Counted from the stretch's first letter, positions 2,290 to 16,704 are shown. The stretch: 16,704 nt of DNA from a bacterium (GCA_041739675.1 JBGSNL010000004.1:1-16704); one strand, 5' to 3'. Translations and numbers: made by a program. The notes: generated by a model from the sequence alone, not told the origin.

Positions 2290-3042
2290 ATGGACGAATT
2301 AATCACCACAATTCTTCACCGGCCGTATGTCTTTGCGTTCCTTCTGGCCTATCTTTTTCTCTCCGTAAAGCGGTGGGGATGGAAAACATCTCTTTTATGG
2401 CTCGCTTCGGGCTATATCATCGCATGGATCTCGGAATATGCCTCAATTCACGTCAATTTCCCCTACGGCGAGTATCATTATATATATGAAAACCTGCAGG
2501 GGGAACTCCTTGTCGGCGGGGTCCCCTTTTTCGACTCCCTTTCATATCCCTTCCTGATCTTTGCCGGATACACGACGGCGGAATTCATTACGCGCCGCAC
2601 GTCGTACGCCGTTTTTCTGGGCGCCCTTCTCACGATGCTCTTAGACGTCATCATCGATCCCATCGCAACGATGGGCGACAGATGGTTCCTCGGAAAGATC
2701 CATTTCTACGCCCACCCGGGCTGGTATTTCGGCGTGCCACTGACGAATTTCGGCGGCTGGTTTCTGGTACCGCTGGCGGTAATTGCTTTCAATGTGTTTT
2801 TATCTTCAAGGCTCGCTGACACTCACTCGAAGAATACGAAAACGGGCACGATTCACGGTCCAGCATACGAATGGTTGTATCCCGCCTTTTATATCAGCAT
2901 CGCCCTCTTCAACATCGCGGTCACATTCTGGGTGGGTGAATGGAAGCTGGGAACTTCAAGCTCGGTGATTTTGTGCGCGATAACTGCCGCGATTATGCTC
3001 GCGTCTCGGAGTGCTCCTGCCCGTCGTATGACAGGATCTTAG
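2290..3042 (+). CDS. CruF/DUF422-like integral membrane protein ('carotenoid biosynthesis protein' family)
   Basis: Multiple hydrophobic segments plus family-typical motifs FPYGEYHY, GGVP, LDVIIDP and YFGVPLTNFGGWF. Confidence 0.8.
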   Translation: MDELITTILHRPYVFAFLLAYLFLSVKRWGWKTSLLWLASGYIIAWISEYASIHVNFPYGEYHYIYENLQGELLVGGVPFFDSLSYPFLIFAGYTTAEFITRRTSYAVFLGALLTMLLDVIIDPIATMGDRWFLGKIHFYAHPGWYFGVPLTNFGGWFLVPLAVIAFNVFLSSRLADTHSKNTKTGTIHGPAYEWLYPAFYISIALFNIAVTFWVGEWKLGTSSSVILCAITAAIMLASRSAPARRMTGS

Positions 3043-4504
3043 GGATACCTTCGACAATCGTTTTGATATGCACGGGCCTTCGCCAGAGGGCGAAAAGGTT
3101 CTTCAAAGTTTCATGGGCGTAATCCAGCCGGAGATCGATGCCCTCGTGTGTGTGCTCCAGAAGCATCTCCGCCCTGTTCTTGTAGTTGGCGTCCACAAGG
3201 TTGATGGTCGGATGGCCAAAGTTGGTGAGATGAAACAAGAGCTTCTGTTTGATCGAGCCGAACTCCCTGCTCGCTATCTCGAACTCCTTTGAGGTCAGAT
3301 CGTAGGCGTAAACGAAAAGTCTGTGCTCCTGGCAAAACTCCGGGGTCAAAAACGTGTCGATGAAGGTTATATCATTATATAAGCGCCTCACCTCGAAGAT
3401 CTTCTTGCGGCCGAGCCCCAGTTTTTTATCCCAAAGTTTTTTGGTCACCATGTCGTCGCAGTCTTCGTACTCTTTTCCGAATTTGCCCTTGTTCCAGCGG
3501 TCTTCGATATCGCGGAAGAGCTCCAAACCTATCTTGTAAGGATTCAATCTTCCGGGGCTCGTCGCAACCGTGCCGGAGTGATGATCCGCATAGTCGATTA
3601 TTTCGCTGTCCTTCAAGGCCTTCTCCGTCATGATCTTGGAATGCCAATATGAGGCCCATCCTTCATTCATGATCTTCGTCTGTCCTTGAGGTGTGAAGTA
3701 ATAACCCTCTTCGCGGATGATGCCCAAGACGTCGCGCTCCCATCTTTCAAGCGGCGCATTTTCAAGCAGGAAGAGAAGCACGTCTCTTTCAGGATGCTCA
3801 GGGAAACGTTTTTCCTTTTTCGCCTCGTCCTCCAGCCACCTCTGCTGCGCGATGATGAAATCGTCCGGGTTTATGTAATCTTCGAGATAGGGGCGCGAAA
3901 CTCTGAGCCTTCTCACGACGCGGTCGTCGCCCGTCACGTCTTCGTGCGGCGCTCGACGCCTTCTTATGGCCGGGGCATGGTAATCGATGAGCGAATCAAG
4001 GGAGAGACAGGCGTCTATGAAATCTTCGACGATGTCCCTGCCGTATCTGTCTATGTAGCGGAGGATGCGCGTCTTGTGGTTGGCCATCTCGTCCATCATC
4101 TTGCGGTTCGTGTGCGCAAAATAAACGTTGTTCTTGAAAAAATCGCAGTGCGCGTAGACGTGGGCCATCACGAGCTTCTGATCCACCATACCGTTGGAGT
4201 AGAGAAGATAGGCGTAGCAGGGGTCGGTGTTGACGACCATCTCGTAAATCTTCGAAAGGCCGTAGGAGTAGCTCTTCGAGAGCTGCTCGTATTCCATGCC
4301 GAAGCGCCAGTGCGGATAACGGTTGGGAAAGCCGCCGTACGCGGCCACCTCGTTCAACTGGTTCCAGTCCAGCACCTCGAAGATAACGTCGTAATAATCG
4401 AGCCCGTATGCCTTGGCGTAACCTTCGATCTCCTTTTTGAGCTTGTGGAGCTCAGGGGGCAGAGAGGTCATGTACTTTCCGGAGCTTGTGGGTTTGGATT
4501 TCAT
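2993..4504 (-). CDS. spoVR: SpoVR family protein
   Basis: Motifs [50 protein letters not shown] and NPYKIG. It sits in the canonical position after yeaG-yeaH. Confidence 0.96.
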
Positions 4505-5597
4505 TTACCTTTTTCCAAAAACGTTTTTATCGAATCGATTATCGCGTCGCGGTTGGGTATCTTCGACGTGATGATCCTCTCGTCGCTCGGGAACTTCTCC
4601 TCAAGATCTTTCAAGAACTGCCCGCTTCCGTATTCGCTCTCCACCTGCCCGTAGCAAAAGACGTTCGCGAAAGTTAATATCCTGTCGGTCAAAAGCTTCA
4701 TGCACTCGTCGGTGTCGTTTCCCGACCAATTGTCGCCGTCTGAAAACTGGAAGGGATAGATGTTCCAGTCCGCTACCGGATAATTCTCTTCCACCATCTT
4801 GATGAGAAGCTTGTAGGCGGACGAGATGATCGTTCCGCCGCTCTCGCGCGTGTGGAAAAACGTATCACGGTCCACCTCGCGCGCAACCGCGTCGTGTATG
4901 ATGTAGCGCACCTCGACGTTCTGATAATTGGACCGGATCCACGTGTCGATCCAGAACGACTCAAGGCGCACGATCTCTTTCTGCTCCGAGCCCATCGAGC
5001 CCGATACATCCAGAATGTAGATGATCACCGCCTTGGCCTGCGGGCGCTTCACTTCTTTCCACGTGCGGTAGACGCGGTCCTCGTGCGTGGGGATGACGAG
5101 CGGCGCGCGCGGATCGTACGTGCCCATCATGATCTGGCGCTTGAGCGCCTTGCGGTATGTCCTCTTGAAATGGCGGAGCGATTCCGGACCCACCGGCGCA
5201 ATACCGGTGTATTTGTGGCCACGGCTCTCCAGATCCTGCTGCCCCTTGGGAACGATGCGCGGGAGCTCCAGCTCTTCTCCCAGCATCCGGGCGAGCTCCT
5301 CGAAGGTGATCTCCACCTCCATCAGATGTTCGCCGGGAAGATTTCCCGCCTTCGACTGCCCGTCGCCGGGGCCCACAGGCTGGCCCTGATCGCCGTCGCC
5401 TTCGCCCACGCCTCCCGCCTGCTCTTCGGAATGTACAAAACGCGGGATGTCGATGCGGGGAATGGGGATGGAAATGAGGTCCTTTCCCTTTTTGCCTATG
5501 AGTTCACCCGTGGCGACGAATTTGCGGAGCTCCTTTTTAATCTTGCCCCTTATTATCGCCTTGAAACGGGCAACATCCTGATCGATCTTCTGCGCCA

Positions 5598-5598
<1 letters not shown>
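4501..5598 (-). CDS. yeaH: YeaH/YhbH (DUF444) family protein with a vWA-like domain
   Basis: Gly-rich GVGEGDGD segment, [23 protein letters not shown] and FSDGDNW. It overlaps spoVR by 4 nt and prkA by 1 nt. Confidence 0.95.
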
Positions 5599-7694
<2,096 letters not shown>

Positions 7695-7721
7695 AAATCC
7701 TCCTTATTGATGACAAAAGAG

Positions 7722-7751
7722 ATGATACCACGCGGTTCATTCCGATTTCAA
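7722..7751 (-). promoter_or_regulatory. Possible internal promoter for prkA-yeaH-spoVR, overlapping the 3' end of mlaD
   Basis: Minus strand TTGAAA-N18-TATCAT with an extended TG (TGG TATCAT), 27 nt upstream of the prkA ATG. Confidence 0.5.
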
Positions 7752-8591
7752 CACTTCTCCCTCATTTTCCCGGAGCGTCGCGCGCACGACGGCCTTCATC
7801 AGCACGTTTCGGTTCGCGCGCCCGAGAAGCGTCCTCAAATCATTATACAGGCCGGGATCGCGGATAAGCATGCCCAGCGTACCTTCGCCCCTTCTGACGG
7901 AACCCAGAATCTCTTTCAGGTCCGCAGACGCCGTTTTCATCGACGACAGCATGTTTTTCAGCTCTTCCGCGCCTTTCTGATCGTATATCAGCGTATGGAG
8001 CGTACCCTGCCCTTTTTCAACCTGCTCCAGCGTGCGGCGGATTGATTTGATGGATGCCTTAAGATCCCCCTCTTTCTCACCCTCAAATGTCTTGAGAAGG
8101 TCATTTACCGTCTGCGCAGCCTCTCCGATGTTGTCCATGATCGCGCCGGCCTTGTCTGCGAGGGCAAAAATGGACGTCGTTTCCTTCGTCGGAACAAACG
8201 CGTTGGCGGGAATGACGGGCTGATCTTCGCTGCCAACGCTTATGTATATGTACTTATCGCCCAAAAGCCCCTGCGTGTTGACCATGGCAACCGAATCGAG
8301 GCGTATGCGCTCCTGGAAATGTTTGTTTATACGCAGCTTGACCGTCAACTGTTTCTCAAGGAGCTCTTCTGGAAAACGGATCTCGTCCACGTTGCCGACC
8401 GATAGTCCACCAAGCTGAACAGAGGCGCCCGCGCGAAGACCCGATATGTCCTTGAAGCTCGCATAGAGCGTGTATTGGCGCTGGAACATCTCGTTCTGGC
8501 CGCCCAGCTGAAAAAGGACGATCATGGTCAGCAAAAGACCCGCCATAACGAAAATTCCGACCCTCGCCTCAGTAAAAAACTCCCGCTTCAT
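7737..8591 (-). CDS. mlaD: MlaD/MCE family protein with a helical C-terminal extension
   Basis: N-terminal TM (EARVGIFV...), MCE motifs FKDISGLRAGASVQLGGLSVGNV and TQGLLGDKYIYI, and repeated GQGTL/GEGTLG motifs. A GGAGG SD precedes the start. Confidence 0.93.
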   Translation of the reverse strand: MKREFFTEARVGIFVMAGLLLTMIVLFQLGGQNEMFQRQYTLYASFKDISGLRAGASVQLGGLSVGNVDEIRFPEELLEKQLTVKLRINKHFQERIRLDSVAMVNTQGLLGDKYIYISVGSEDQPVIPANAFVPTKETTSIFALADKAGAIMDNIGEAAQTVNDLLKTFEGEKEGDLKASIKSIRRTLEQVEKGQGTLHTLIYDQKGAEELKNMLSSMKTASADLKEILGSVRRGEGTLGMLIRDPGLYNDLRTLLGRANRNVLMKAVVRATLRENEGEVLKSE

Positions 8592-8599
8592 AATTCCTC

Positions 8600-9349
8600 C
8601 TAGCCGTCTCCCGTTTCCATCTCGCCCGCAATGAAATTCCTGACTATCCTGTCATCCGACTTTTTCGCTTCTTCTTTCGTACCCACAAAGCTGAAGTGCT
8701 TGTCGTAGATGAGCGCGATCCTGTCGGTGACGCGGAAAGCGCTCTCCATGTCGTGCGTCACGACGATCGAAGTCACGTGGAGCTTCTGCTGGAGCTCGAC
8801 GATCATGTTGCAGATTCGTTTCGTGTTCGCAGGATCCAGCCCCGTTGTCGGCTCATCGTATAAAATCACGTCGGGATCGGTTGCGATCGCGCGCGCCAGC
8901 CCCACTCTCTTCTTCATTCCGCCCGAAAGATCTGCCGGCATCATCTCTTCGATTCCGGGAAGACCCACGAGTTGCAACTTTGTGGCAACGATCTTGGCGA
9001 TCTTGTCCTCGTCGTACTTGAAATGCTCGCGCAGCGGATACGCCACATTTTCAGCGACGGTCAGCGAATCAAAAAGGGCCGCGCCCTGAAAGAGCATCCC
9101 GATCCGGCTGCGCATTCTGATGATCTCTTTCTCCTCCATCTCGCCCAGACTTTCACCTTTGAAGAGCACATTACCCTTGTCGGGTCTCAAAACGCCGAGG
9201 AGGAGTTTTAAGAAAACGGTTTTCCCCTTACCCGAACCGCCGATGATCGTGATCGTCTCACCCTGCGCAATCGACAGGTCGGCACTCTCCAGCACCTTGT
9301 TCGCGCCGAACGATTTTGAAACCTTTTGAAATTCGATGACAGGTGCCAT
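8600..9349 (-). CDS. mlaF: MlaF/Mkl-type ABC transporter ATP-binding protein
   Basis: Walker A GGSGKGKT, LFQGAALFDSLTV, signature LSGGMKKRVGLARA, Walker B ILYDEPTTGLDP and VTHD. Start set at ATG 9349, 1 nt after the mlaE stop. Confidence 0.95.
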   Translation of the reverse strand: MAPVIEFQKVSKSFGANKVLESADLSIAQGETITIIGGSGKGKTVFLKLLLGVLRPDKGNVLFKGESLGEMEEKEIIRMRSRIGMLFQGAALFDSLTVAENVAYPLREHFKYDEDKIAKIVATKLQLVGLPGIEEMMPADLSGGMKKRVGLARAIATDPDVILYDEPTTGLDPANTKRICNMIVELQQKLHVTSIVVTHDMESAFRVTDRIALIYDKHFSFVGTKEEAKKSDDRIVRNFIAGEMETGDG

Positions 9350-9350
9350 T

Positions 9351-10163
9351 TTATAAAAATACAATCAACTTCGTTAAGAAAAAGTCCGAAATAAAAATTA
9401 CGATCGACGAGAAAACCACCGCGCGCGTGGTCGCGCGGCCCACGCCTTCCGTTCCGCCTATCGTGCCCAGACCCTCGTAGCATGAAATGATTGCTATCGC
9501 GAAACCGAAGAAAATCGCCTTGTAAACGCCGCTCGTGAAATCTTCTATCAAAACTGTCCTTCGAATCTGGTCGAGATAGAAATTAGCCGAGACGCCCGCT
9601 TCCCGAACTGTAATGATCATGCCGCCGAAAGATCCTATCACGTCGGCGATCACCGTGAGAATGGGACAGGCGATGACGGTCGCCAGAACCCTCGGCACAA
9701 CCAGCTTTGCAACCGGATTTGCGCCCATCGCCTCGATCGCCAGAACCTGCTCCGTCACGACCATGGAGCCCAGCTCCGCAGCGATGCCGCTGCCCACTCT
9801 TGCTGCCACCATGAGACATGTGAGCACGGGGCCCAGCTCGCGGAAGATCGCAAGGCCGACAATCTGGCCCACGTTCTGCTTCAGCCCGTATCTGCCGAGA
9901 CCTATGCAGAGCTGAAGGGCGATCACCATTCCGGTGAAGAGTGCGATCAAAACAACGATCATCAAGGAACGATTTCCAATGGCGGCGAATTGTCTTACGA
10001 GTTCCTCCACATCCAACCGGTATCTGAAAAGCCCCCTGAACGTGCGCGCCGCAAGGTATGATACGCCGCCGATGTGGTCGCATAAATTACAAAAACGCCT
10101 TCCCATGGACGCCATGAAAGCGCGGAAATTGAAAACGGAAGGCGTGATGGCCAAGTGGTCCAT
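9351..10163 (-). CDS. mlaE: MlaE family lipid ABC transporter permease
   Basis: Motifs FTGMVIALQ, RELGPVLT, RVGSGIAAELGSM.VTEQ, LVVPRV and GGTEGVGRATTRAVV. Confidence 0.96.
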   Translation of the reverse strand: MDHLAITPSVFNFRAFMASMGRRFCNLCDHIGGVSYLAARTFRGLFRYRLDVEELVRQFAAIGNRSLMIVVLIALFTGMVIALQLCIGLGRYGLKQNVGQIVGLAIFRELGPVLTCLMVAARVGSGIAAELGSMVVTEQVLAIEAMGANPVAKLVVPRVLATVIACPILTVIADVIGSFGGMIITVREAGVSANFYLDQIRRTVLIEDFTSGVYKAIFFGFAIAIISCYEGLGTIGGTEGVGRATTRAVVFSSIVIFISDFFLTKLIVFL

Positions 10164-10194: not shown

Positions 10195-10731
10195 CTAGTA
10201 GTGAAACCCTTTGAAAAATTCTTCAAAATCGCTTGTGACATCGTAGGGCGCATCGGGCGGCATCACCGCGTAAAAATCAAAGTTGCAGCCGTCTTTTTTG
10301 ACGACCACAATGTCCATATTCACTGCCACGCCGTCCAAAGTTCCCGCTACCGCAAGGCGAAGCGCTCCTCTCCCGTCCAGCGTCATATCCTTTGCCGACG
10401 TGGTTTTGCGGTCGTTTGAGAGCGCACTTGCCAGCTCGCCTCCGAGTGTATCGAGTGGGCGGTCCGAAAAACTCTTTCCGCAGAAGGCGTCAGTTGAAAT
10501 GGATGCTTTATAATTCTCGTTGTACCACGTGATCGCGCGCGCGTCCGAATCGAGGCGCCGCCATCCGCCGGGAAGCTCTCCCACGCGGTAATATCCTCCA
10601 TACTGCAGAAAAACTTTGCCATGTCTGTACGACATGACTCCCCTGTGTTTCGGCGATTTGAAGATGCAACTTCCGGAGATAAAAAGGACGATAAAAACGG
10701 ATATCAACGCAATTTTGTATTTTGCCCCCAT
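10195..10731 (-). CDS. Hypothetical exported protein, probable lipoprotein; first gene of the mla block
   Basis: Signal peptide MGAKYKIALISVFIVLFISGS-C with a lipobox-like Cys. Two further Cys are present. It is co-oriented with mlaE and 31 nt from it. Confidence 0.75.
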   Translation of the reverse strand: MGAKYKIALISVFIVLFISGSCIFKSPKHRGVMSYRHGKVFLQYGGYYRVGELPGGWRRLDSDARAITWYNENYKASISTDAFCGKSFSDRPLDTLGGELASALSNDRKTTSAKDMTLDGRGALRLAVAGTLDGVAVNMDIVVVKKDGCNFDFYAVMPPDAPYDVTSDFEEFFKGFHY

Positions 10732-11009: not shown

Positions 11010-12302
11010 ATGCTAGCAGCGGGAGACGAAGCAGGCAGGATTGGAAGAAGTTCACATCAAACTTCGGCACGGACAATGTCTGCGTCGGCACGCGACGATA
11101 CCGGTAGGCGCATGCCAGACCATTATAGGCGAGTCGTGAAAGATGTCGTCTCCTACCTACGCCGTTACGGTGCGACTAGTTCAACGTTTCCACCCAATCC
11201 CCTTGTGCAACTGCCTCCTACACACTTTTTTGATCAATTCTACAAATCGAGTTATAGGAAAATCGAAGCTGAAAGCGGCGCCGTGCTTCGCCTCAACAAA
11301 GGGACAAACAGTGTAGTGGTTATGGGAAATCTTTACGATGTGGCCGGCCTTATTCAAATGCCTTACGAAGAGGATTGGAACGATTTCAAGGTTCCCGTAT
11401 TCGGCTCATCTGTAGGCGCCGTCGCTTCGTTAATTGAATATCATGCTCTTACCGACGAGCTCGCGCGGCGATTTGGAGGACCAAATTTTCTTTTTCAGTC
11501 GGCCCACTATAGATCAGCCGACTATAGATCACGTAGTGTATGGGCCGTTGAAATTACCGAGCGAAGTTCACCAAGAAAACCGCCCGACATGGAGCGCTTC
11601 ATCGAACGGTTCAGGTCAAGTCCTCAGCGACTTATCGAACTTAAAACGGAAGAACCAATCGGAGCGTTAACTCATCTCCTCAAGACAGAAGGCGGTAAAA
11701 ATGCCACCCATATTATGCACCTGCTTAGGGAACCGCCGCGCGGGTATTTGGCCAATCAATATACTGATAATGATAACCGATCTGTGTGGGACAGCGCCGG
11801 CTTCTTGCTTAACAGCAACGGTGACGTGACATCTGTCGTGCTCCGTTTTTCTGAGGGCGCACGGAGTGGCCATCAGTTCATAATTACCAGGGAGGTCGCT
11901 CTCTTCGGAGAAGTGAGCGGCGGAAAAATAATCTGGAGCGCGCCGAACATTGGTTCCGATGTCGATGGAAAGGCGTTATTCGAAAGCTACCGCGCCACCA
12001 TTACCAGAATTTTTGCCGGCAATGTCCGTCATTCCTTTGAAGAGTCTCCTCCCTCCGAACCGTCTTCAGGAGCGGCTCAAGGTTCGAGTGTGACCGGACT
12101 CGCTGAAGATACCGGCGAAACAATCGGCGGCGCGAATGTCATGGGTGCTGCAGATGTACATCGCGCGACGCGCGGCACCGCGGGAAGAACCCAAAGAAGA
12201 TTCGGACACACGCAGCTCGCCGGCGCCAGAGCGGCAATCCGCACACCCACACTCCGCCCGGTGGCGTCTCCTATCGCAGGACGAACGACCGTAGTGCGTT
12301 AA
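11010..12302 (+). CDS. Array gene 1: hypothetical protein (430 aa) with the shared C-terminal module
   Basis: GAGGAGG SD before ATG 11010 (MLAAGDE...). No recognisable domain or signal peptide. Tail SSVTGLAEDTGETIGGAN...TVVR at 12084-12302. Confidence 0.88.
   Translation: MLAAGDEAGRIGRSSHQTSARTMSASARDDTGRRMPDHYRRVVKDVVSYLRRYGATSSTFPPNPLVQLPPTHFFDQFYKSSYRKIEAESGAVLRLNKGTNSVVVMGNLYDVAGLIQMPYEEDWNDFKVPVFGSSVGAVASLIEYHALTDELARRFGGPNFLFQSAHYRSADYRSRSVWAVEITERSSPRKPPDMERFIERFRSSPQRLIELKTEEPIGALTHLLKTEGGKNATHIMHLLREPPRGYLANQYTDNDNRSVWDSAGFLLNSNGDVTSVVLRFSEGARSGHQFIITREVALFGEVSGGKIIWSAPNIGSDVDGKALFESYRATITRIFAGNVRHSFEESPPSEPSSGAAQGSSVTGLAEDTGETIGGANVMGAADVHRATRGTAGRTQRRFGHTQLAGARAAIRTPTLRPVASPIAGRTTVVR
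12084..12302 (+). repeat. Shared C-terminal module, copy 1
   Basis: Aligns with 13176-13397, 15073-15291 and 16674-16704. Confidence 0.92.
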
Positions 12303-12319
12303 AGGCCGCTCTCTGATTT

Positions 12320-12347
12320 TTGCTTGCCCTGAAACCGCGCATATACT
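12320..12347 (+). promoter_or_regulatory. Possible sigma70-type promoter of array gene 2
   Basis: TTGCTT-N16-TATACT. The equivalent position upstream of gene 1 reads TAGCTT-N16-TACGCT. Confidence 0.5.
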
Positions 12348-12374
12348 AAGCATCCGCGCGGGGGATTGGGCCCA

Positions 12375-12412
12375 GCCCGCCACGCGAGCCTCGCTCGCGA
12401 GGCGAGGCGGGC
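12375..12412. repeat. 38-nt palindromic element in the leader of array gene 2
   Basis: An outer GCCCGCC...GGCGGGC stem encloses GCCTCGC-TC-GCGAGGC or, alternatively, CGCGAGC-CTC-GCTCGCG. The element is absent from the homologous leader of gene 1. Confidence 0.7.
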
Positions 12413-12425
12413 GGGGAGGAAGATT

Positions 12426-13397
12426 ATGATAGCAGCGGGAGAGGGACCGAACGGGATAGGAAACGGTTTACCGCCACACGGTCAGTTTGAGCCGCTCGAC
12501 TTCGGTGAAGAGATTGTACCAACAAGACAATTCATTGACAGCGAAGGAAGGACATTGTCGCCTGCCCGGCTTCAAAACCCGGGTCTTGATAGAAATTTGC
12601 ATTCCGAAGTCTCCATGGCTCGGCGTATAGTATACAGAGTCAGGACCGTTCTGGCCGGATGGCGCAGATTTGATACAAACGATTTCCTGCCGGTCCGTTC
12701 CGCCGGCGGTTCGAATATTGAATACAGGATTCAACTCCACAGGCCCGATACGGAAAGCGAGGCGATGCGCATTGTTGTCAGGGGCAATTTCGACGATGCT
12801 TCCTTATTTCTTCAGTTACTGACACGCAGAGCCAATGTTGCAAGATGGGGGCGCGAAGAAATACGGGCGGACCTTGCCGAGCTCATTCGCAACGGAGAAT
12901 GGCTGGCGATGAGGGTGGCCGATTCAAAGCTGCATTTTTTCTTATTTCCGACCATTGATGAGAACGGCAGAAAATACGCGTTTTCAATCTGGTGGGATAC
13001 AGCCGATGGTTATCCTGTAACGTCGTCCACCGGTAAAGGTAAAATCCGCGGCGATTTCATAGAACGCACTGTCGGGCCGCGATCGCAAATGGATGACACC
13101 GCGTTCCAGCTTGCATTGAGAGACTTTCGCTCAGACATAACTCCTGCGCGCGGCACACCCTCTCCGGTTGCCAGTCCCAGTGTGACAGGTCTCGTCGGTG
13201 ACACCGGCGAGACGAGCGGCGGCGCAAATCTCGCAGGTGCAGCGCACGTACATCCAGCCACGCGCAGCACAGCGGGAAGAACCCAAAGACGCTACGGCCA
13301 TACTCAGCTCGCCGGCGCCTGTAGGGCGATACAGATCGGACAAGCAAGAACAACGATAGCATCCCCGGCCGCACGGCCAACAATGCCAGTTCGCTGA
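12426..13397 (+). CDS. Array gene 2: hypothetical protein (323 aa), diverged paralogue of gene 1, with the shared C-terminal module
   Basis: GGGAGG SD before ATG 12426 (MIAAGEG...). Tail PSVTGLVGDTGETSGGAN...MPVR. Confidence 0.88.
   Translation: MIAAGEGPNGIGNGLPPHGQFEPLDFGEEIVPTRQFIDSEGRTLSPARLQNPGLDRNLHSEVSMARRIVYRVRTVLAGWRRFDTNDFLPVRSAGGSNIEYRIQLHRPDTESEAMRIVVRGNFDDASLFLQLLTRRANVARWGREEIRADLAELIRNGEWLAMRVADSKLHFFLFPTIDENGRKYAFSIWWDTADGYPVTSSTGKGKIRGDFIERTVGPRSQMDDTAFQLALRDFRSDITPARGTPSPVASPSVTGLVGDTGETSGGANLAGAAHVHPATRSTAGRTQRRYGHTQLAGACRAIQIGQARTTIASPAARPTMPVR
13176..13397 (+). repeat. Shared C-terminal module, copy 2
   Basis: 38/47 aa identical to copy 1 from SVTG to QLAGA (manual count). 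Confidence 0.92.
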
Positions 13398-13590
13398 AAA
13401 TTAGGCAACGCGATCTCCGCAATAACTCGATATCTGCCGGCAACAACCGCTGATGCCGCTGTTATAATATTTTGCCATTCCCGCCATCGTAGAAACATCT
13501 AAACATCGCTACTTGCCACATGTTTGCCGTTGACGGCACAGCTCTCATAATATATAGCGCGACGAAATTACAAAAAAAAGGAGACAGACC

Positions 13591-15291
13591 ATGGGTGATC
13601 CACGTTTGGAATTGGCCAGGGCAATCGACCTCGACTCCCCTATATGGGAATACACGACTGCGGCGGATGCGGTGGATTTACTTCATTCGGCGTACGTCGA
13701 ATATGCTTATGATGTAAATGGAAGCGATCGCTTCCTCGGCACCATCCGGAAGTTGGAGGAAGATTTGGAAATGGACCCGCTTCCCCCAAGCCTCAGTGAT
13801 GCGGGCTCGCGCCGGCCGGAGGTGCTCGCCCGATACAACGAACTTCTTTTGCGCTCTTTGCCTCCTGCCGGTTCTCCTCGCAGAATGTTCATCGACTCGC
13901 TTGCGCAAAATTACCGGCACATGAGAACTGATCTTGCGGTACTCGACAGAGAGGCGCCGATATTCGGGTCAGCGCGCACAATCGTTTCCCATATCCTCGA
14001 CGCCAGATTGCAATCGGTGCACAGTGCAAACGAGGAACTGGATTTGCTGACAATGGCTCAGGGCTGGGACGGTCAGTTTGAGGTTAACTCACGGATGCTG
14101 TGGGCAGGCCTTCTGAGTTTATTGGAACATGGAAAGGAAGTTCTCATTCCTGCTGATGTGGAAAGACTGATACACGGAGTGTCACGTTTTGCTGGTATCG
14201 ATGCGTGGACGTCTTACATCGATGATACGCGAAATAGAACGGGACTTGAACTTGACGAGCAGGACGATCATGCGGAAAGATCCGAAGCCATAAGAATGTG
14301 GCTCGACAACTTTGTGGGCAACGCGAACTGGGAGAGCACCGGACATCAGGCTGCGAGAAACTCTTTGTATGTGATGCTCAAAGAGGGCCGCGCAGAAGCC
14401 GCGCGGTTGTATCTTCAGCTCGAACGGGAAGGGCTTGGCAGTAGCCGTCTGTGGGCGACCGTTCACATGGCAGCCTCCAATTACCGCCTCCTTGACGATA
14501 CATTGTTGTCCATTTTTGAGCTTATGAGACAAGACGCCCACTCCTCATTGGGATATGAGATGCAGGAATATCTGGACGTAAGTATCGCACTCTTCAACAC
14601 GCCCGCCCTCCTCGCGGCAATACAAAAATATCTGATACCGATAAATCAAAAACTTGCCGACAGGTCCTCGTCACGGGACCTCTGGCTGCGCGAAACTGAG
14701 GGTCTGGAATTCCTGACCGATTTTTATCAGAGGCTTCTCATCCAGAACGGCAAGCAAGGAGTCGACGAAAGACTCTTACGCATTTTTGCAACACAGGATA
14801 TCAACGACATCCGCGCGCGCCTTATACGGGACGTGATCAGCCTGGATGAAGCGGATCGTGATTCAAACAGCAAGGCGCTGGCGACGTTGGAGAATGAAAG
14901 CTTTGCCGAGATGCTGGACACCGAAGACCCGGCAACGTTCCCCTTTGAAAGATATACGGGGCTCATAAGCAGAAGGAGCCTGCCGCCAACGACGAACGGT
15001 GCTGCAGGCGCGAATGGAGCGACAAACGGGTCGACCCCTCCGCCCCCCTTTGCCGCAAGAAACGCGAGGGCCTCCACCGTGACCGGCCTCATTGAAAACA
15101 CGGGCGAGACAATCGGTGCAAATTTAGGAGTCGCCGCGCCATTATACCCGGGCACCCATCGTATCGCGCAACAAAGAGCGCATGGAGCCGGCCGCACACA
15201 GATCGCCGGCGCCCGTGCGGCAATCCAGACCAGACTGGCAAGGCCGGTCATAGCCACAACCGTGAGACCGGCGCAGATCGTAGTGCGTTGA
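13591..15291 (+). CDS. Array gene 3: hypothetical protein (566 aa, probably largely helical) with the shared C-terminal module
   Basis: AAGGAG SD and a long ORF. Linker LPPTTNGAAGANGATNGSTPPPP. Tail STVTGLIENTGETIGAN...IVVR. Confidence 0.9.
   Translation: MGDPRLELARAIDLDSPIWEYTTAADAVDLLHSAYVEYAYDVNGSDRFLGTIRKLEEDLEMDPLPPSLSDAGSRRPEVLARYNELLLRSLPPAGSPRRMFIDSLAQNYRHMRTDLAVLDREAPIFGSARTIVSHILDARLQSVHSANEELDLLTMAQGWDGQFEVNSRMLWAGLLSLLEHGKEVLIPADVERLIHGVSRFAGIDAWTSYIDDTRNRTGLELDEQDDHAERSEAIRMWLDNFVGNANWESTGHQAARNSLYVMLKEGRAEAARLYLQLEREGLGSSRLWATVHMAASNYRLLDDTLLSIFELMRQDAHSSLGYEMQEYLDVSIALFNTPALLAAIQKYLIPINQKLADRSSSRDLWLRETEGLEFLTDFYQRLLIQNGKQGVDERLLRIFATQDINDIRARLIRDVISLDEADRDSNSKALATLENESFAEMLDTEDPATFPFERYTGLISRRSLPPTTNGAAGANGATNGSTPPPPFAARNARASTVTGLIENTGETIGANLGVAAPLYPGTHRIAQQRAHGAGRTQIAGARAAIQTRLARPVIATTVRPAQIVVR
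15073..15291 (+). repeat. Shared C-terminal module, copy 3
   Basis: VTGL, TGETIG, AN, GRTQIAGARAAI and the terminal VVR are conserved relative to copy 1. Confidence 0.88.
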
Positions 15292-15313
15292 TCCAAGCCG
15301 TTTAATCCATAAT

Positions 15314-15342
15314 AAACGGGCCCCAAAGGGGCCCGTTTTTTT
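15314..15342 (+). terminator. Rho-independent terminator after array gene 3
   Basis: AAACGGGCCCC-AAA-GGGGCCCGTTT stem running into a T7 tract. Confidence 0.9.
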
Positions 15343-15395
15343 ATAGCAACTTTTTAAGAGCCGCGGCGATAAAGTGTCGAATACAAGGAGCACAC

Positions 15396-16704
15396 ATGTC
15401 CATTGCAGCGCTGGCTCGCCTGTTCAACATGACGCTTGACGTGGGCGACTACAGAGCGGAACTCGCCGCCAAATCCGGAAGAGTAGCAATGCCGGGCAGC
15501 GAAGAGGAACGAGAGCTCAACGCGCTCATCTCGCACTACGCCCTGAGTCTTTCCCAGGACCAAATTACGGAGCTCGCTAGAAACCCTTCCGCGCTTCCTT
15601 CTGCGCTTCGCGCCGGCTTCGGACGTTTCCTTTCGGATCCCGCAAACTATCCCACCGCGTCGTCAACACATGCGCTCGTTCTCATGCGGTCTCTGATCGC
15701 TGAGTACGAAAGACTCGCCGATTTCATTCAGACAAAAATTGTCTCGCGGAGCGGACGCGCAACCGCGGCACAAAAACGCGAACTTTTGGCCTTCAAGTCC
15801 GCCGCGCTGGCCATCGTGAAATCCGTATCGACCGTCGAACTCCAAAATCCGGAGCTCAACACGCTCTCCAATATAGCGAAACTCGCCTTTTCCGATGATT
15901 TCAGCCGGATCGGACTTGGAATGATGCTCATGATCTCGAACCCGGACGGTTTGAACCCCGGATTTCAACGTTACCTTGCGGGGCTTCCCGCGGAGGTAAG
16001 GTCGTTCGATCATGCCGAGTGGAGAAGAGGTCTCAAGAAGCTGGAAAGAATCGCGCGGAAGGCCGGCGACATGCCACGCTTTCATGATATCTGGGCTGCA
16101 ACCTTCTCGCTGCTCCCGAAGACAAGGATGAAACCTGAAAATTTCCGGTTGATACTGCGCGGCCCGCCAACGCCTGAAATGTTGATAAACGGCAGTCCTC
16201 AGGAATTAGACGCGAGCGACGCGAGGAGAAGATCGATCATCGTCGTTTTGGGCGACGGCGAGCACGAGCTAGCCACGCGCTTCATGACCTACATGGCTGC
16301 GCGACGGGCTGGGCTGGGCCTTCTGGACGGAATCATCCACGCTGCAGCCAGTAGACCGCTCAAGAACGTGAGCCGTGAACTTGTTTTGAAAGCAATGGCG
16401 GAGCTGGAAGATCTGACAAATTTCAGAAGGGCCGACTTGAGGAACGCGCTCTTTCTATCCGCCAGACGCATATGGCATTTCATAAGACCGCTGCTCGACA
16501 AAGGCGAAGCAATGGCAATGACATCGGCCCCTTCCGCCGACGCATATCTCACGGACTATTATAATAGGAAGGGGGAAAAAGGCGGGAACCGCGGCGGGGC
16601 TGCTTCGCCCGCAGGATCGCGCGGGCCTTCGAGTCCGGCCCCCCGCTCCTCATCCGGGTCCGCGGGCGCGCAAAGCTCCGTCACCGGGGTGTTCGACACG
16701 GGCG
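15396..16704 (+). CDS. Array gene 4: hypothetical protein (>436 aa), truncated by the window edge at the start of the shared C-terminal module
   Basis: Not in the ORF track. AAGGAG SD and ATG at 15396 (MSIAALARLFNMTLDVGDYRAELAAK...). My translation finds no stop and ends ...GGAASPAGSRGPSSPAPRSSSGSAGAQSSVTGVFDTG. Confidence 0.88.
   Translation, partial: MSIAALARLFNMTLDVGDYRAELAAKSGRVAMPGSEEERELNALISHYALSLSQDQITELARNPSALPSALRAGFGRFLSDPANYPTASSTHALVLMRSLIAEYERLADFIQTKIVSRSGRATAAQKRELLAFKSAALAIVKSVSTVELQNPELNTLSNIAKLAFSDDFSRIGLGMMLMISNPDGLNPGFQRYLAGLPAEVRSFDHAEWRRGLKKLERIARKAGDMPRFHDIWAATFSLLPKTRMKPENFRLILRGPPTPEMLINGSPQELDASDARRRSIIVVLGDGEHELATRFMTYMAARRAGLGLLDGIIHAAASRPLKNVSRELVLKAMAELEDLTNFRRADLRNALFLSARRIWHFIRPLLDKGEAMAMTSAPSADAYLTDYYNRKGEKGGNRGGAASPAGSRGPSSPAPRSSSGSAGAQSSVTGVFDTG

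Follow-up and report, generated by a model that had tools for sequence, protein, structure and literature searches.

The window analyzed here is a stretch of 16,704 nucleotides that makes up contig C54 (GCA_041739675.1 JBGSNL010000004.1:1-16704) of a bacterial genome, G000, assembled as 1.91 Mb in 88 contigs and rated 94.6% complete. The closest PrkA proteins in named records are 83 to 86% identical and carry the depositor labels Deltaproteobacteria, Pseudobdellovibrionaceae, or Pseudomonadota; the bacterium may belong to phylum UBA10199. At the end of the window lie four consecutive genes whose unrelated products finish in one shared C-terminal module, called the tag below (Table 1). A first-pass annotation made from the sequence alone had described them as effector-like proteins, each with its own Shine-Dalgarno (SD) sequence and variable body, joined by a module of about 72 amino acids (aa). 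Most of that description held. SD-like matches stand upstream of genes 1 to 3 (5 to 6 bases of AGGAGG) and gene 4 (AAGGAG), and pairwise BLAST aligned only the last 72 to 86 aa of the products (E values of 1e-10 to 1e-22). The bodies gave no significant pair (best E value, 0.085), which confirms that those of genes 3 and 4 are unlike those of genes 1 and 2; genes 1 and 2 are unrelated to each other as well. None of the four genes matched Pfam or NCBIfam. A homologue search of a large sequence collection covered genes 1, 3, and 4: gene 1 matched itself alone, and genes 3 and 4 found one homologue each (P0033 and P0034, both 46%). AlphaFold models of genes 1 and 3 had a mean predicted local distance difference test score of 44 and 41, the linker and tail of gene 1 were modeled without structure at low confidence, and fold comparison gave no meaningful match (best Z score, 5.4; no E value below 0.001).

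Table 1. Features of the tagged gene array and its flank in the window
Feature	Coordinates	Strand	Description
Tagged gene 1	11010..12302	+	430 aa; orphan alpha/beta body (low-confidence model); N terminus M-L-A-A-G
Tag of gene 1	12084..12299	+	72 aa; motif, then basic acid-poor tail
Tagged gene 2	12426..13397	+	323 aa; orphan body; N terminus M-I-A-A-G
Tag of gene 2	13176..13394	+	73 aa
Tagged gene 3	13591..15291	+	566 aa; orphan body, all-helical by prediction
Tag of gene 3	15073..15288	+	72 aa; preceded by Asn/Gly/Pro linker
Tagged gene 4	15396..16704	+	436 aa, open; cut by contig end
Start of gene 4 tag	16674..16704	+	first ten residues; window end
Hairpin 3' of gene 3, intrinsic-terminator-like	15314..15338	+	11 pairs, T run
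Conserved lipoprotein-like gene, flanking	10195..10731	-	divergently abuts yggS in relatives G006 and G008

The tag recurs throughout the genome. A hidden Markov model (HMM) built from the three complete window tails and iterated over the open reading frames (ORFs) of G000 at an E value cutoff of 0.001 converged on 27 ORFs, with every match at a C terminus and a best reversed-decoy E value of 1.1. A loose scan for the motif gave 82 matches, 39 of them at 60 to 79 aa from a stop codon, while the strict motif was found 60 to 80 aa from the C-terminal end in 36 called genes, versus 0.44 expected, and elsewhere in 7 called genes. The member set comprised 38 motif matches with the following Glu (one added by hand) plus one HMM match, for 39 complete members in which the motif lies 64 to 75 aa before the C-terminal end (standard deviation, 3). 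A genome-wide profile search returned 40 places, composition revealed two further variants, and with gene 4 the total is about 42 tags. As the first-pass annotation had anticipated of an HMM search, C-terminal hits were many and fell on unrelated bodies: 38 bodies sort into 31 groups.

The three complete window tags all end in VR, as first described. Genome-wide, sequence conservation is limited to about the first 15 residues, S(T/S)V(T)G(L)..(G)E(T)SG, the VR ending is found in 10 of 39 members, and the remainder is kept by composition. This tail is rich in Arg, Ala, and Val and nearly devoid of Asp, Glu, and Lys; over the last 50 aa, 37 members compared with 1206 other genes had 7.9 versus 2.9 Arg, 0.14 versus 3.7 Lys, and 0.54 versus 6.1 Asp plus Glu. 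A Gly/Pro/Ser linker runs ahead of the motif, and the helical hydrophobic moment of the tail is slightly raised (0.50 versus 0.45; standard deviation, 0.016). In one orphan protein (L019:13604-15523, on contig C6), the motif lies 125 aa before the end, with an additional segment and then a basic tail after it.

Within the motif, all four codons for Val and for Gly and both Ser codon classes are used. Synonymous codons are mixed at invariant residues, and therefore the constraint acts on the protein: selection on the motif is at the protein level. A DNA-level element was rejected on the same codon mixing. A further possibility, that the ends are a functionless by-product of gene-end recombination in arrays, would account for tails being more alike within one array than across arrays (score of 18 versus −2 with the C36/C37 array excluded; P = 0.036) and for DNA likeness stopping at the stop codon. 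It is nonetheless very improbable, as the mixing of codons is complete, solitary genes at many loci bear the tag, the spacing is fixed, the charge bias exceeds that of shuffled DNA (Asp, Glu, and Lys in the tails fall below shuffled tail DNA), and no tail copies without a gene were found in the genome HMM search.

The tag matched nothing in Pfam or NCBIfam, in line with the earlier remark that it belongs to no recognized family, and its profile had no matches among PDB sequences. Metagenome scans found nothing, and the ESM Atlas gave no usable match. Among 1.84 billion representatives, the tag profile had 32 matches, 31 of which were ORFs of G000. The remaining match (P0021, 576 aa) agrees with a G000 member by length alone.

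Of the tagged proteins, 38 occupy 4.1% of the genome. A Pfam cutoff was passed by 3 of the 35 members scanned (HATPase_c, SNF2 helicase, and HD_4) and an NCBIfam cutoff by none of the tagged proteins scanned; the best matches of the HD member were alarmone hydrolase structures (E value, 1e-28). Ankyrin, F-box, and leucine-rich repeat families were absent from the 35 + 29 proteins scanned, and the target is therefore taken to lean prokaryotic, the recognizable cargo being enzymatic and prokaryote-like. Compared with other genes, the bodies are poor in Cys (0.22% versus 1.19%) and Lys (3.4% versus 6.2%). A signal-peptide proxy, based on hydropathy rather than a dedicated predictor, was positive for 1 of 35 tagged proteins versus 370 of 1165 others, in agreement with the signal-peptide-free proteins first described. 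Residues 2 to 20 hold more Ser, Thr, Pro, and Gly (6.7 versus 4.3), and 12 of 35 tagged proteins, versus 11 of 1165 others, start with M-x-(S/A/V)-(G/A)-(G/A) or similar, a count inflated by paralogues. This polar N-terminal composition fits substrates of type III secretion systems (T3SS), for which composition is not diagnostic.

In several members of the array on contigs C36 and C37 (L008 and L009), a common N-terminal segment about 60 aa long is also repeated internally, and a small toxin-antitoxin-like gene pair lies within that array (C37:2219-2712). Large Cys- and Lys-poor orphans with no clear motif were noted at C25:17613-21521, C34:289-2661, C86:9058-10257, and C47:12837-end; the one on C25 begins like the C36/C37 family, the one on C86 has a G001 homologue that bears a tag, and all four are possible untagged or diverged members. 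Several short, similar genes of about 110 aa, which we take to encode four-helix-bundle-like proteins, are inserted in and near operons at C31:4080-7836 and C85:33330-34078.

To place the tag among relatives, 22 genomes of the order (G000 included) and 93 genomes of the class were used, together with G001, a sister species of the same genus. The G000 profile had no match in the 21 other order genomes. In 702 kb of G001 inspected, 15 proteins bore a drifted tag, V-x-G-L-(L/M)-x-S-G-E, at 53 to 67 aa (the list held 16 entries, one of them a false membrane protein). Orthologous G001 bodies are 21 to 34% identical to their G000 counterparts, versus a median of 75% over 418 best matches; for example, the G001 homologue of gene 1 is 25% identical over 335 aa and bears the G001-type tag. 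A leave-one-out matrix assigned the right species to 38 of 38 G000 motifs and 15 of 16 G001 motifs, a result that is partly circular, since each set had been chosen by pattern. Compared with each other, the two profiles gave an alignment of 19 columns at 50% probability. A joint profile found 39 and 19 places in these genomes; of the 91 other class genomes, 5 had weak places, at most two in each. P0033 and P0034 also end in a linker and tail, with a motif-like segment at 64 to 67 aa. From these tails and those of G001, it follows that the architecture travels with the cargo and that its wording is species specific; the sister species puts its own form of the motif on the orthologous bodies. 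A reading of the motif as a phosphothreonine site for FHA domains was dropped, as none of the Thr positions is invariant when the two species are compared. G001 also encodes an SNF2-type tagged protein with two tandem motif copies, one G000-like and one G001-like (L229:1-1695), and three tandem tagged DUF7790 proteins (L152:14091-18711). In G007, a Cys-free orphan has a Pro/Gly linker and an acidic tail (L262:17730-18788), and one search of that genome found no second example.

Drift between sister species bears on the possibility that the tag is a proteostasis device, such as a degron, a cleavage site, or a clamp that prevents potentially harmful cargo from being active or long-lived in the producer. 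A flexible linker, an unstructured tail, and a hydrophobic end would suit such a role, as would the gaps of 104 to 193 bp between the window genes, which are too short to hold immunity genes between members of the array, and inspection by eye found ClpX, Lon, FtsH, HslU, and ClpB-like ATPases. We consider this explanation improbable, since the motif has drifted between sister species, in contrast to housekeeping proteases, which are conserved from one species to another, and since degrons usually need no motif at a fixed 64 to 75 aa.

The first-pass annotation compared the layout with substrates of the type IV secretion system (T4SS), and membership in that class did not survive a search for the machinery. 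VirD4 (PF02534) was not found in G000, TrwB (PF10412) was found in 1 of the 22 order genomes, which was neither G000 nor G001, VirB4 (PF19044) was found in 0 of 5 genomes, and the PF00437 ATPases over the cutoff in G000 were all of GspE/PilB/PilT type by context, with none VirB11-like. No unexplained large export ATPase stood among 116 P-loop matches read by eye. Searches for other machines gave the contractile sheath PF04984 and VipB PF05943 of type VI secretion or contractile injection in 0 of 5 genomes, the type I secretion HlyD-type adaptor TIGR01843 over the cutoff in 0 of 3, and the family 1 encapsulin shell PF04454 in 0 of 5. Neither a Tad/Kil ATPase nor an ATP/ADP translocase was found in G000; the latter had weak matches in 10 of the 22 order genomes. 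A type II secretion system (T2SS) and a type IV pilus are present in G000. Export by some route other than a T3SS, whether a T4SS in an unassembled part of this 94.6% complete genome, the T2SS or type IV pilus, or a machine of unfamiliar kind, would fit the resemblance to XVIPCD effectors, in which motifs precede a low-complexity tail (PMC8740702, available text). With no VirD4, TrwB, or VirB4 found in G000 and no unexplained large export ATPase among those P-loop matches, and with T2SS cargo requiring a Sec or Tat signal that the tagged proteins lack, such a route is quite improbable.

A nonflagellar T3SS is found order-wide, with sctR and sctU in 22 of 22 genomes; flagellin was detected in 1 of the 22 and not in G000. 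SctV, SctR, SctS, and SctN exceeded curated NCBIfam cutoffs (SctN passes a FliI model too), SctJ and a FliK-like ruler are present, and two SycD-like chaperones adjoin translocator-like genes, which were assigned by their position beside the SycD-like genes alone. T3SS loci in G000 lie on C87, at C5:16273-20291, on C12 and C66, and at C31:11468-13624 and C37:10367-11431. The order-wide system keeps FliO-, FliM-, FliG-, and FliJ-like genes and a sigma factor, and sctV lies after secA and faces FHA-domain genes.

The first-pass annotation saw no secretion machinery, which is true of the window and not of its probable surroundings. In G006 and G008, the gene order is sctR, sctT, translocator-like gene, sycD, sycD, kinase, hypothetical gene, yggS, lipoprotein gene, mla, and prkA. 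Contig C14 of G000 starts, in frame, with the remaining part of a tag; two tagged genes and then yggS come next. Because reading frame, a 3-base overlap, and synteny agree, gene 4 probably continues at the start of C14, and the window array probably has six genes. By this join and synteny, it would be inserted in the gap between yggS and the lipoprotein gene, at a distance of about six genes from the main cluster of T3SS genes. The eight-gene C36/C37 array occupies the interval from a kinase gene to sctU and stops about 50 bp short of sctU; in most relatives read, these two genes are adjacent. The remaining tagged arrays are elsewhere in the genome, leaving two of about 19 loci near T3SS genes. 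The rest of the window holds, on the minus strand at 2993-10163, an ordinary prkA-DUF444-spoVR operon and an mlaEFD operon, and at 470-832 a small protein with a Cys/His pattern, two repeats, and an Ala/Pro tail that passes no Pfam cutoff. The total count of terminator-like sites in the region, which includes the hairpin in Table 1, is not above that of shuffled sequence.

Taken together, the tag is real, selected, and a member of neither the T4SS nor the type IX secretion system (T9SS) signal families. In the literature searched, with most subscription papers and all supplements outside its scope, it is apparently undescribed, and no C-terminal tag shared across a T3SS repertoire was reported. 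We put a probability of about 45% on the reading that the roughly 40 fast-evolving orphans are a set of effectors whose C-terminal tag serves for docking to the nonflagellar T3SS. Among its parts, export of the tagged proteins is likely, the T3SS is favored as the route, and the tag, on balance, would act in the producer before export. The first-pass annotation had proposed an export, loading, or processing signal; a shared, protein-selected C-terminal tag is what was found, and its role in export is what we infer. In the proposed mechanism, the short extended motif would bind some chaperone or export-gate component, binding would route the cargo to the T3SS, the flexible Ser/Thr/Pro/Gly-rich N terminus would enter the channel first, as is usual, and delivery would be into a prey or host cell, probably a prokaryotic one. 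New cargo would be recruited by acquiring a gene end from a neighbor, which the greater likeness of tails within arrays fits. A stronger version, in which the T3SS of a lineage of small, uncultured, deltaproteobacteria-like cells picks the whole repertoire of about 40 anti-prokaryote effectors by this tag, with tag and receptor drifting together in each species, is doubtful.

Several observations weigh against T3SS docking by the tag. In T3SS substrates, the signal and the chaperone-binding domain normally stand at the N terminus (PMC10025392, portion consulted). A precedent in favor is Tir, whose C-terminal chaperone-binding region, residues 490 to 550, is needed for efficient secretion; the available text of PMC6114900 calls that site unique. 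Within the machinery, SycD-like scores, obtained on the G002 copies, were below the curated cutoff; no dedicated T3SS secretin was found, the two secretins sitting in T2SS and pilMNOPQ-like operons; no needle gene was identified in the genome; and 40 small acidic proteins included no clear candidate for a class I chaperone (PF05932 matched 0 of 5 genomes and no control either). The cluster's own translocator-like and ruler proteins have no tag. In distribution, only 2 of the 93 class genomes, both of one genus, have the tag, while the T3SS is in 22 of 22 order genomes; 460-kb samples of G002 and of G007 held no comparable tagged arrays; and the tails of P0033 and P0034 are not Arg-rich. Kinase and sctU are adjacent with no array in G001, so the linkage is not conserved, and by a rough post hoc estimate the probability that two of about 19 loci would fall so close to T3SS genes is about 5%, which is suggestive only.

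Some of the same facts would suit a T3SS that exports by N termini, with the tail acting after delivery and targeting cargo to or across a prey or host membrane. The tail is basic, free of acidic residues and Lys, and slightly raised in hydrophobic moment, the N termini are T3SS-like, species-specific tails could track host range, and with no secretin or needle identified, delivery may stop short. This explanation is unlikely, because the conserved part is a short motif and not the basic stretch, because P0033 and P0034 keep the motif-like segment and not the Arg-rich composition, and because cargo of very different activities would hardly share one destination.

If correct, T3SS docking by the tag would overturn the rule of N-terminal addressing of T3SS substrates. 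It would also make the effectors of a T3SS in a myxobacteria-like lineage accessible by sequence for the first time; the available text of two reviews still treats the effectors of the myxobacterial T3SS as hypothetical (PMC12075869 and PMC12428579). Whatever the export route, the tag groups about 40 orphan proteins as one functional class. As it drifts beyond HMM detection between sister species, similar tagged repertoires may hide in other uncultured genomes.

Among known systems, the C-terminal domains (CTDs) of T9SS cargo are a shared C-terminal address of about 70 aa on diverse proteins, folded and paired with a Sec signal. The tag is alike in length and position, but the tails here are predicted to be unstructured and signal peptides are absent, and the T9SS analogy drawn at first was not upheld. 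XVIPCD effectors of the Xanthomonadales T4SS (PMC8740702, available text) also combine variable cargo, motifs first, a low-complexity tail last, and no signal peptide. That domain is about 120 aa with a Gln-rich tail, whereas the tag is about 70 aa with about 15 conserved residues and a basic tail, and here no VirD4 or VirB4, no immunity genes between members, and no Pfam match were found. Most plausibly, the tag would address proteins from the C terminus in the manner of a T4SS signal, with a T3SS as the machine. Tir, in the available text of PMC6114900, likewise depends for efficient secretion on a short, extended motif that lies in about the last 60 aa of the protein; its site is described as peculiar to Tir and secondary to an N-terminal one, whereas in G000 the motif is common to about 40 proteins and a class I chaperone was not identified. 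The machinery itself resembles the Myxococcales T3SS* (PMC3459982, PMC12075869, and PMC12428579, each in part), which is also nonflagellar, belongs to a deltaproteobacteria-like lineage, and has FHA proteins nearby and hypothetical effectors; T3SS* has no secretin of its own, and no dedicated secretin was seen here. Unlike T3SS*, the system described here has SycD-like chaperones with translocator-like neighbors, a ruler, no Tad/Kil ATPase found in G000, and at least three loci, and the order-wide T3SS looks intermediate between the Myxococcales systems and full injectisomes.

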